Shown: positions 29,742 to 41,064 of the stretch, one piece after another | Layout of the letters: each line of letters opens with the position of its first letter | Numbering within the stretch: the stretch's first letter is position 1 | From: a phage | Sequence record: PZ445416.1 | Strand: one strand, 5' to 3' | DNA length: 50,192 nucleotides | The notes under the pieces: model-generated | Seen by the model: only the letters and a program-made list of their open reading frames with translations | Databases searched by the model: none | What the model was told of the DNA's origin: nothing | Program-made: the position numbers and the translations under genes

Positions 29742-30455
29742 ATGAAAGACTTTAATGATATTGAAACCATCGACTTTGCAGAAACTGGTTGCTCATTCAC
29801 TCGCGAAGCAATAGCATCAGGCGGTTATTATCAGGCATTGAAAACGCCAACCTGCAAAGAGATTTCAGGGCGTCGATACAAGGGAACAAATACCCCTGAC
29901 GCTGTTCGTGATTTATGGTCAACTCCGCGCGAGGTTATTGCATACCTTGAGGGGCGATACGGAAAATATGATCTCGACGCTGCGGCAAGCGAAGAAAATA
30001 AAGTTTGCGATAAGTTCTACTCTCAGGAAACAAACTGCTTAAAACGTTGGTGGGGTAAGAATAAGCACGTTTGGTTAAACCCCCCTTATAGCAGACCCGA
30101 TATATTCGTCAAGAAGGCTATTGAGCAAATGGAGCACAATAACCAGATCGATATACTGTTACCCGCCGATAACTCTACGGCGTGGTTTACTGAAGCTCGA
30201 CAGAACGCAGCTGAAATAATCTGGATTGAAGCGGACTTGACTGAGGATATTGACGGCAATGAATACGCGCGATCCGGTCGCCTGGCTTTCATATCCGGTG
30301 AAACTGGAAAGGCCGTAGACGGTAATAACAAAGGTTCGGTAATTTTTATTATGCGCGAACTTAAAGAAGGTGAGGTGCAACAGACTCACTACATCCCAAT
30401 CACAAGCATTTGCCCTTCGGTGAAAAACAAACGAGCAAAGGTGAGGAAAGTATGA
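29742..30455 (+). CDS. dam: DNA N6-adenine methyltransferase (phage Dam-like)
   Basis: Catalytic NPPY motif (WLNPPYS) and upstream acidic SAM-binding region; 237 aa. Confidence 0.75.
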   Translation: MKDFNDIETIDFAETGCSFTREAIASGGYYQALKTPTCKEISGRRYKGTNTPDAVRDLWSTPREVIAYLEGRYGKYDLDAAASEENKVCDKFYSQETNCLKRWWGKNKHVWLNPPYSRPDIFVKKAIEQMEHNNQIDILLPADNSTAWFTEARQNAAEIIWIEADLTEDIDGNEYARSGRLAFISGETGKAVDGNNKGSVIFIMRELKEGEVQQTHYIPITSICPSVKNKRAKVRKV

Positions 30456-39130: not shown

Positions 39131-39173
39131 ATTATGCCAAATCACACCGATCGAGTTTTAACAAAAAGTGCTA
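39131..39173 (-). promoter_or_regulatory. Box-A cassette (minus strand)
   Basis: Minus strand TAGCACTTTTTGTTA (stop of the methyltransferase-like gene inside box), 22 bp, CATAAT, leader CCTCATCGAAACGAGA. Confidence 0.6.
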
Positions 39174-39862
39174 TCCGCGATCGCTTTAAAAAATCCCCTG
39201 GGTGATAGGGATCGTATCAACTTAGTTTTGGCAGATTTGCCGCCTAGCTTGCTGTGCTGCGCAGAGTACCCGTCAGGCAGGCTTACAGGTTTTCTTTCAG
39301 GCATGACAAAATCGTCAGAGGTCCACAGACAAGTTTTCTTCGGGTAAGCATCGCGCGGCGCAATATACATAGGGAACCAGGGATGCGCGTCATTCTCAGG
39401 AAGATAGCCGCCATACTCCCAGGGATTGAAGGAGTGATTTGGTTTTCTCCACACAGACGACAGGACGCTAACCGGATTCTCAATGATGTAAGTCACACCC
39501 AGGCTATCGCCAATGTTCGCGGCAATCCTTGCGGTGGCAACGGCCTTTTCCTGGAATAACGGATCGCGTTCACGCTTTCTTGCGAAGTGGGCGGCACCGC
39601 TAACAGCCAGGTCGGTACACGGAGGGAAAGCCATAATGAAATCCGGCTTGCCATACACACCAGCGATAGCATCACGCTCAAACGCTGCGTCAATGAACAC
39701 GTTCACATACTCAATGTTCGGATGCTCCACCCGGGCATTGTACTTTGCATAATCCCCGTGATCGGCTCCGTCAAAGTTGAAGCACATCACCTTGTGACCT
39801 TGCTTAGCCAGTTCATGACCAGCAAGACCGGAACCGTCGAATAGCGACCAGATTAATTTCAT
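39158..39862 (-). CDS. C5-cytosine methyltransferase-like protein
   Basis: Start moved to MKLIW after AGGAG; motif order FDGSG (I), FPPCTDLAVSG (IV, Thr in place of the usual Gln), IIENP (VI); short at 234 aa. Confidence 0.55.
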   Translation of the reverse strand: MKLIWSLFDGSGLAGHELAKQGHKVMCFNFDGADHGDYAKYNARVEHPNIEYVNVFIDAAFERDAIAGVYGKPDFIMAFPPCTDLAVSGAAHFARKRERDPLFQEKAVATARIAANIGDSLGVTYIIENPVSVLSSVWRKPNHSFNPWEYGGYLPENDAHPWFPMYIAPRDAYPKKTCLWTSDDFVMPERKPVSLPDGYSAQHSKLGGKSAKTKLIRSLSPRGFFKAIADSTFC

Positions 39863-39895
39863 TGCAAATCTCCTACTGATTGGTTGATGTGATGA

Positions 39896-39939
39896 ATCAT
39901 ACACTGCCAGCCTGACCAAGTCGTTAGCAAAAAATGCTA
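39896..39939 (-). promoter_or_regulatory. Box-A cassette (minus strand) upstream of C5-methyltransferase-like gene
   Basis: Minus strand perfect palindrome TAGCATTTTTTGCTA, 23 bp, TATGAT, leader CCAATCAGTAGGAG. Confidence 0.6.
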
Positions 39940-40020
39940 TTCCAATAGTTGCTCATTATTCCACCAGTAATGGAATATCTGGAATAATTGCGATCCCGAT
40001 TGATCTCGAATGATGAAATG

Positions 40021-40090
40021 TGATTGTTGCATGATGTGCAACTGTTGATGTGATTGTTGCTTGGAATGCAATGATTGTGAGAGGGAGGAT
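40021..40090. repeat. iteron-like direct repeats and short palindromes
   Basis: 13-mer ATGTGATTGTTGC at 40028 and 40058 (30-bp register), plus palindromes TTGCATGATGTGCAA and TTGC-N6-TGCAA. Confidence 0.55.
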
Positions 40091-40129
40091 TTAGTGTTAC
40101 CCGGTTCGCCTGGTGGTCATCTCCATTTT

Positions 40130-40144
40130 TAGCAAAACGTACTA
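40130..40144 (-). promoter_or_regulatory. isolated Box-A-like site within AT-rich hub
   Basis: Plus strand TAGCAAAACGTACTA (minus strand TAGTACGTTTTGCTA); no hexamer at the cassette position. Confidence 0.4.
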
Positions 40145-40230
40145 TCGATTACACTTTAACTTGTCACGATTGTAATATTTGTCTAGAATCGCACTTGTGA
40201 CAAAATTACGCACTGTGACGCATAACAATA

Positions 40231-40300
40231 GACATATAGATATATGTATATATATAATATATATAGTGTTTTTTTTATTTATATATATAGATAATCATAT
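40231..40300. repeat. TA-rich tract with element TATATAATATATATAG (second copy)
   Basis: TATATGTATATATATAATATATATAG...ATATATATAGATAAT inside the 630-bp non-coding hub between the divergent early clusters. Confidence 0.7.
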
Positions 40301-40548
40301 TGTAATAGTTGTGTATAGCTGTCTTACATTGTCTAGCGTACTGTTGGCATATTTCTATCTGCATGTTTATATATACAGTACTTTTTTGAGAGCTATATAT
40401 TTCTATGGTTACTCTAGACAGCTAGACAAATGTTACACGGCTTAAAATTGACTCGCAGGCATTGACAGCTCTACATCACGTTGTCACAATGGCAATTGTT
40501 GACACATTATGACGCCATTTACACACAAATAGACAAAGAGGATATATT

Positions 40549-41064
40549 ATGAGCAATACCAATCAGGAATTAAAAATCACCGATATGATTCGCCTAACCT
40601 GTGATGCAATGTACCGCGACAAAGGCATGACCGAGTTCTCTTTCGTGGCTGATGATATGGCCCTAGAAGCAGCGCGATTCTACTTCCGTGGCCAGGAGGT
40701 AAGCGATGCCGATCTTGAATCTGCCGCTGCCGGATGGGTGGACCAGAACCAGGGGGAGGTAGAGAAGCGATTCAAATCTGCTTTCATCACTCCAATCATT
40801 ACCCGACACTTTTGCAAGTATGGCAAGGTGGCAAAGGTGAAGGTAGGCCGGAATGACGCGGCAATCACGATGATAACCGTTATCGTTACAGACGAAGAGG
40901 TTCCAGTGAAGAAACGCCGTAGCCGGAAAAAAGTTAGCCTGGCCGACTGCCTGGACTCGTTTGATGTTGATGTTAGCAAGCTATCAGATAGCGAGTTAAT
41001 GGTTCGTGATGTGAATGAGATCGTGCGCCAGATGAAAGCGCATATTGAAAAGTGTGGACTGTAA
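40549..41064 (+). CDS. hypothetical protein (first gene of rightward early cluster)
   Basis: 171 aa, RBS AAAGAGGA, directly downstream of the AT-rich hub. Confidence 0.5.
   Translation: MSNTNQELKITDMIRLTCDAMYRDKGMTEFSFVADDMALEAARFYFRGQEVSDADLESAAAGWVDQNQGEVEKRFKSAFITPIITRHFCKYGKVAKVKVGRNDAAITMITVIVTDEEVPVKKRRSRKKVSLADCLDSFDVDVSKLSDSELMVRDVNEIVRQMKAHIEKCGL

Follow-up and report, generated by a model that had tools for sequence, protein, structure and literature searches.

A short Dcm-like protein of a Tunavirus phage as a probable orphan DNA cytosine-C5 methyltransferase

A phage genome of 50,192 nucleotides (sequence record PZ445416.1, the whole of which we refer to as the window) encodes, besides a Dam-type adenine methyltransferase, a second candidate, a protein of 234 residues with motifs in the order of the cytosine-C5 methyltransferases but with Thr in place of the usual Gln after the catalytic Cys. 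The question raised by this locus is whether so small a protein is a working DNA cytosine methyltransferase and, if it is, which sequence it would modify. The genes concerned, and the ribosome-binding site of the shorter one, are as follows:

39158 to 39862, minus strand: coding sequence of the 234-residue Dcm-like C5 cytosine methyltransferase (open reading frame, PHROG 757, homologues, AlphaFold2 model and fold matches)
39870 to 39874, minus strand: AGGAG ribosome-binding site, read directly from the sequence, 7 nt upstream of the ATG
29742 to 30455, plus strand: the other methyltransferase of the phage, a Dam-type N6-adenine enzyme (PF05869, E 2.4e-69)

By analogy with a studied relative, we consider it highly probable that the 234-residue protein works as a DNA cytosine-C5 methyltransferase, SAM-dependent and orphan, within the family typified by the Dcm of phage K42. 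Neither the gene nor its family is new, and both the annotation as a cytosine methyltransferase and the triggering of a retron have been described before.

The gene and its family

As given by the list of open reading frames and its translation, the coding sequence comprises 234 codons and a TAA stop (39158-39160), with the ATG at 39862. The mechanical list extends the frame upstream to a TTG at 39919, yielding 253 residues; since all homologues begin at the ATG, which is also the codon served by the AGGAG, we take ATG 39862 and not TTG 39919 as the true start. Translation bore out the original prediction of an open reading frame carrying FDGSG, FPPCTDLAVSG and IIENP in that order, and the Pfam match at 29742-30455 likewise upheld its view that the 234-residue protein is a second methyltransferase beside Dam.

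On sequence grounds, the protein belongs over its full length to the short phage Dcm-like methyltransferases, which have about 210-260 residues: PHROG 757 ('DNA methyltransferase') covers residues 1-231 with an E of 1.5e-83, and a word-indexed protein search returned 4997 relatives (best E 1.5e-154), the best 120 of which comprise 158-259 residues, mostly 225-250, with some bearing the name 'C-5 cytosine-specific DNA methylase'. An exhaustive profile search yielded 1939 clusters at 50% identity, nearly all of about 200-260 residues, so that the short length is the norm of the family rather than a truncation. With tblastn, the gene was found in 1514 of 50,697 phage records, the carriers being Escherichia, Klebsiella and Salmonella siphoviruses, larger myoviruses, Vibrio phages and records deposited as Campylobacter phages. 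The records of this last kind (for example C7, 134,946 bp, and E6, 49,946 bp) carry the gene at 40-54% protein identity, and the same range is seen in coliphages and Klebsiella phages with similar genome size, suggesting that the Campylobacter-labelled records are mislabelled enterobacterial phages.

The window protein had no match in Pfam (PF00145 included, at E <= 1) or in NCBIfam, nor among PDB sequences by single sequence or by two profiles, and PADLOC returned a marginal Type II methyltransferase match only (E 0.007). Fourteen of 27 close homologues matched PF00145, over profile positions 4-94 only, and three homologues passed its gathering cut-off of 22 bits (28.5, 25.4 and 24.7 bits). 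The Tunavirus orthologs are labelled 'DNA methylase', 'DNA methyltransferase', 'DNA cytosine methyltransferase', 'putative site specific DNA methylase' or 'hypothetical protein', and the closest copy, that of Shigella phage phi2457T (98.7% protein identity), is annotated as hypothetical. The lesson for annotation is that this family, scoring below the cut-offs of both Pfam and NCBIfam, often ends up as 'hypothetical' even though structure and published experiments identify it.

Fold, conserved motifs and a reduced recognition region

An AlphaFold2 model built from 27 sequences (mean pLDDT 87.3, pTM 0.87) clearly displays, as a prediction, the C5-methyltransferase fold. In a Foldseek search of the PDB, the best 50 matches were all DNMT3A, 3B or 3C (top E 9e-07), and about 171-192 of the 234 modelled residues align to 13 C5 methyltransferases. 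In the predicted order of strands, strand 1 is followed by FDGSG and strand 4 by PPC, strand 5 closes with ENP, and the last strand carries KKTCLW. The corresponding features, for which conservation was counted in 71 family members, each 30-55% identical to the window protein, are:

39827 to 39841, minus strand: motif I, FDGSG (residues 8-12), AdoMet-binding loop after beta-1, aligned by hhalign to SLFDGIATG of DNMT3A
39596 to 39628, minus strand: motif IV, FPPCTDLAVSG (residues 79-89), with the Cys82 codon at 39617-39619, aligned to SPCNDLS of DNMT3A
39473 to 39487, minus strand: motif VI, IIENP (residues 126-130), with Glu128, at the end of predicted strand 124-129
39323 to 39340, minus strand: KKTCLW (residues 175-180), putative counterpart of motif VIII, on predicted strand 177-181 (K175 in 70 of 71 members, T177 in 70, W180 in 71)
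39233 to 39319, minus strand: residues 182-210, candidate minimal target-recognition region (variable columns, indels, pLDDT)
39191 to 39214, minus strand: RSLSPRGF (residues 217-224), junction of the last two helices (conservation; AlphaFold2 helices 211-218 and 222-232)

Invariant throughout the 71 members are C82, E128, P130, P147, Y173, W180 and P188, while F79, P80, G89, K96, N129, K175, T177, R217, S218, P221 and G223 are kept in at least 90% of them. Given the strength of the PHROG 757 match, the 4997 relatives and the invariance of C82, E128 and P130, the match to the motifs is not due to chance. Motif I, sitting behind predicted strand 3-7, has the family form [FY]-D-x-[TS]-G, in which the first Gly of the window protein's FDGSG is variable. 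In motif IV, the PPC (residues 80-82) follows predicted strand 75-78. The suspicion, voiced in the original prediction, that Pro-Cys-Thr is atypical and renders the chemistry doubtful did not survive this comparison, as Thr83 is found in 63 of the 71 members next to a Cys82 present in all of them and close to a Phe79 present in 65; Pro-Cys-Thr is a signature of the family, not a defect, and DNMT3A likewise lacks the Gln. With the DNMT3A catalytic-domain sequence used here, which is identical to PDB chain 5yx2_A, hhalign aligned residues 1-90 of the family profile to residues 6-91 of that domain (E 3.3e-4), spanning motifs I-IV and pairing SLFDG with SLFDG and FPPCTDLAVSG with GGSPCNDLSIVN of DNMT3A. 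From this pairing, a residue other than Gln after the catalytic Cys has a precedent in an active enzyme, the Pro-Cys-Asn-Asp-Leu of DNMT3A resembling the Pro-Cys-Thr of the phage family.

Motif VI was placed from the predicted structure and from the superposition of the K42 authors, with the sequence alignments stopping short of it; N129 is kept in 69 of 71 members between the invariant E128 and P130, the Val of Glu-Asn-Val thus being Pro family-wide. The classical R-x-R of motif VIII is absent, the corresponding strand carrying K175-K176-T-C-L-W, and we surmise that KKTCLW is the equivalent of R-x-R. Near the C-terminus, RSLSPRGF (R217 and G223 each in 69 of 71 members, P221 in 67, R222 in 56) is the probable counterpart of motif X, represented by GRSW in DNMT3A and GN in M.HhaI. 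The C-terminal half is tied to the C5 methyltransferases only through the predicted structure: hhalign offered no sequence support for the equivalences of motifs VI, VIII and X, aligning the profile with DNMT3A in the N-terminal half only and with E. coli K-12 Dcm over just 27 columns round motif IV (E 0.25).

Between its counterparts of motifs VIII and X, the window protein does not have a variable target-recognition domain with motif IX. The approximately 30 poorly conserved residues at 182-210, which precede the two C-terminal helices in the model, may constitute a minimal recognition region; residues 201-220 are modelled with pLDDT blocks of 68-73 and have no long secondary-structure elements. 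The original description of a protein of C5 type, unusually short and lacking an obvious target-recognition domain, agrees with the C5 fold and with this strong reduction of the recognition region.

How this protein relates to better-known enzymes has to be read with some care. The catalytic domain of DNMT3A or DNMT3B is 13-16% identical to the window protein and differs from it in having about 285 residues, motif IX, a tetramer interface, ENV and R-x-R, in contrast to the ENP and K-K of the phage family; the likeness does not point to any kinship beyond shared membership of the C5-methyltransferase superfamily. With E. coli Dcm and M.EcoRII (PF00145), the chemistry would be shared and the target is reportedly the same for homologues, but E. 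coli Dcm has 472 residues and a large recognition domain, compared with 234 residues and a reduced one here. Judged from the sequence, 'Dcm-like' is a functional name that does not imply close homology to E. coli Dcm.

One position seemed at odds with activity. Residue 29 (39776-39778), which follows strand 2, is Asn in the window protein, whereas 66 of the 71 family members have an Asp there that probably binds the cofactor ribose. We counted this departure as a possible point against activity, yet the 27 close homologues from enterobacterial phages all share Asn29, and one of them, the K42/Bas06 enzyme, is active.

Activity, target sequence and the cost of a retron trigger

Analysis of the window protein itself gives its fold, its conserved residues and the family to which it belongs, whereas its activity and chemistry are attributed by analogy with a 55%-identical relative. 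Phage K42, which is 95.4% identical to the BASEL phage KarlJaspers (Bas06), evades retron Ec86 (Eco1) only on loss or silencing of its 711-bp dcm, and expression of this gene is toxic only in retron-bearing cells; K42 Dcm raises 5mC on Ec86 msDNA as determined by LC-MS but a C82A/E128A/K175A/K176A mutant does not, and 34 of 35 Ec86-sensitive phages of the collection encode dcm (bioRxiv 10.1101/2023.08.16.553469; the final version of this study by Wang et al. is cited as Cell Rep 2024;43:114857). K175 and K176 were called substrate-binding residues in that work (bioRxiv 10.1101/2023.08.16.553469), the four residues having been mutated together with their individual roles not separated. Bas06_0055 of KarlJaspers, 711 bp like K42 dcm and annotated 'Dcm-like C5 cytosine methyltransferase', encodes a protein of 236 residues that is 55% identical to the 234-residue window protein over 229 residues (E 5e-88), with C82, E128, K175 and K176 at identical positions in both. 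The two phages, both Drexlerviridae of differing subfamilies (Tunavirus for the window phage, Hanrivervirus for KarlJaspers), also encode Dam and carry the gene in a leftward block of small genes. The 45% of residues that differ are mostly at 30-70 and 183-205, and the latter may be the stretch that reads DNA.

A second relative, gp52 of Pantoea phage vB_PagS_AAS23, is a DNA cytosine methyltransferase 51% identical to the window protein (E 2e-79), in which BLASTP found no conserved domain and which was recognised by HHpred (PMC8004638). As in the window phage, Dam accompanies the cytosine methyltransferase in AAS23, although the host genus is different. AAS23 DNA was reported to be Dam- and Dcm-methylated from restriction digests with a panel including EcoRII and MboI (PMC8004638), patterns of virion DNA in which the phage enzyme is not separable from a Dcm that the host may itself possess. 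The original prediction had left both substrate and specificity open; in view of the 5mC made on DNA by the 55%-identical homologue and the reported Dcm methylation of AAS23 DNA, this hardly applies any longer to the substrate, whereas for the exact specificity it stands.

Based on the C5-methyltransferase fold and the conserved residues, we surmise that Cys82 of the Pro-Pro-Cys loop would attack C6 of a flipped-out cytosine, with Glu128 of Glu-Asn-Pro protonating N3 as the general acid and with Lys175 and Lys176 on the next strand holding the base and backbone in replacement of Arg-x-Arg, and that the methyl group would then be passed to C5. The architecture would be DNMT3-like but minimal, nearly devoid of a target-recognition domain.

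Would the group transferred have to be a methyl? In a CmoX-like C5-carboxymethyltransferase, carboxy-SAM from the host CmoA would give rise to 5-carboxymethylcytosine. CmoX has Ser before Pro-Pro-Cys, is usually encoded beside a phage CmoA and bears, in place of the motif X Asn, an Arg (R350) that contacts the carboxymethyl group (PMC12783734); R222, at the start of the last helix of the window protein, is a possible counterpart of R350. Several features render this reading very improbable: 1) the window protein has F-P-P-C and not S-P-P-C, the Phe being that of most family members (65/71); 2) its 55%-identical homologue makes 5mC; 3) nothing resembling CmoA came to light when the E. coli protein was searched by tblastn against the whole window (E <= 10). 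The proteins also differ in size, the chain of CmoX from Synechococcus phage S-B43 in PDB 8yf3 having 333 residues, compared with 234. We give slightly less credence still to an RNA (tRNA) m5C methyltransferase like Dnmt2, or to a catalytically idle DNA-binding protein, either of which is difficult to reconcile with catalytic residues that do not vary and with the results for K42.

For an active DNA cytosine-C5 methyltransferase, as we prefer to read the protein, we lean by analogy toward the inner C of CCWGG as the target. Altering either C of the CCTGG in msDNA abolishes Ec86 defence (bioRxiv 10.1101/2023.08.16.553469); CCWGG was assumed for K42 Dcm by its authors from the name, and the msDNA mutants signify that both Cs are needed and no more. 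The genome harbors 105 CCWGG sites vs. 107 expected from a Markov model, neither depleted nor in excess, implying that the presumed targets are present and unavoided, a count that is uninformative on specificity. A base-resolution methylome was not found in the literature on Tunavirus and Webervirus.

A different target, in the form of a shorter motif overlapping the CC of msDNA, or of hairpin or single-stranded DNA, is a less likely but serious alternative that overlaps with our main claim of an active enzyme. In its favor, the stretch from the motif VIII-like strand to the C-terminal helices has just about 30 residues, poorly conserved at that, although the highly conserved insert at 138-173 could provide recognition contacts as well. 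It is also in keeping with the nearest folds being DNMT3 enzymes, which read only CpG, and with the recognition region of E. coli Dcm being without detectable similarity. The published assignment of CCWGG consists of analogy and three msDNA mutants, yet among these a change in either C sufficed to abolish retron triggering, and the DNA of AAS23 was reported as Dcm-methylated with EcoRII in the digest panel. The low 5mC of msDNA in dcm-carrying MG1655 without the phage enzyme suggests that the phage enzyme may be more than a duplicate of host Dcm; on the other hand, methylation of CCWGG does not create an R-mC site for McrBC, in keeping with phages that grow on K-12. A bolder version, which we regard as doubtful, is that this is the smallest known sequence-specific C5 DNA methyltransferase, either with a new specificity (a short motif, structured or single-stranded DNA) or with a new minimal module for five bases, perhaps as a dimer; if true, a new specificity or recognition mode would be moderately interesting.

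With CCWGG as the favored target, replicating phage DNA would be the substrate, and methylation of the inner C would shield the 105 genomic sites from EcoRII-type enzymes, a protection that is probably relevant when the phage outpaces host Dcm or on dcm-minus hosts. The same activity would methylate the msDNA of retron Ec86 (Eco1) and thereby set off the abortive-infection defence, which is its known cost, and the presence of the gene predicts sensitivity to Ec86-carrying strains such as BL21. The broader benefit foreseen originally, a wide protection against restriction by two methyltransferases, finds no backing in the BASEL study, which saw among Drexlerviridae no pattern tying methyltransferase content to restriction resistance.

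In the same whole-genome counts against the Markov model, several palindromes of the restriction-site type were under-represented (GGCC 75 vs. 119, CTAG 35 vs. 65, GATC 242 vs. 318 and AGCT 147 vs. 197 expected), among them six-base ones (GAATTC 1 vs. 8, CTGCAG 1 vs. 6, CAGCTG 2 vs. 9.5), and CCSGG was commoner than expected (72 vs. 48).

Genomic setting and the upstream intergenic region

The window is the genome of a Tunavirus (T1-like, Drexlerviridae), and the DNA surrounding the gene is 89-94% identical to that of many Escherichia and Shigella Tunavirus phages with genomes of about 50 kb. The methyltransferase gene heads a leftward run of small genes, all belonging to PHROGs of unknown function, and PHROG annotation of these neighbours, all small, disclosed no nuclease partner; nor is any domain fused to the 234-residue protein. 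Leftward transcription would start beside a large divergent intergenic region, and from this position early expression is probable. A promoter scan near the gene found 7 candidates vs. 5.5 expected from shuffled sequence, not above chance, and the terminator scan did not surpass shuffled sequence either. The sole terminator-like hairpin near the gene (39195-39211, minus strand) falls inside the coding sequence toward its 3' end, probably by chance; in annotated relatives, the terminator is located further downstream, past the next small gene. On the 5' side, escape mutants of K42 had a single base changed 9 bp ahead of the start of dcm (bioRxiv 10.1101/2023.08.16.553469), pointing to the importance, in a relative, of the region on the side of the ribosome-binding site.

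The intergenic region itself was delimited from the sequence:

39863 to 40548, no strand assigned: 686-bp intergenic region with an AT-rich core, between the leftward methyltransferase gene and the first rightward gene (40549-41064)

This region could be regulatory or a replication origin. Its core, at about 40230-40380, is very AT-rich and (TA)n-like, and lies between the arms of a 16-nt inverted repeat, TGTAATATTTGTCTAG at 40171-40186 and CTAGACAAATGTTACA at 40422-40437, with 94% complementarity; a 27-nt imperfect inverted repeat pairs 40177-40203 with 40481-40507. Closer to the methyltransferase gene and upstream of it, 40018-40071 contains two 24-nt direct repeats 30 nt apart, ATGTGATTGTTGCATGATGTGCAA and ATGTGATTGTTGCTTGGAATGCAA. 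These fall in a 44-residue open reading frame with a TTG start (39937-40071, minus strand), for which PHROG offers no match; phage SA12KD has instead a different open reading frame, of 77 residues, which overlaps the start of the methyltransferase gene.
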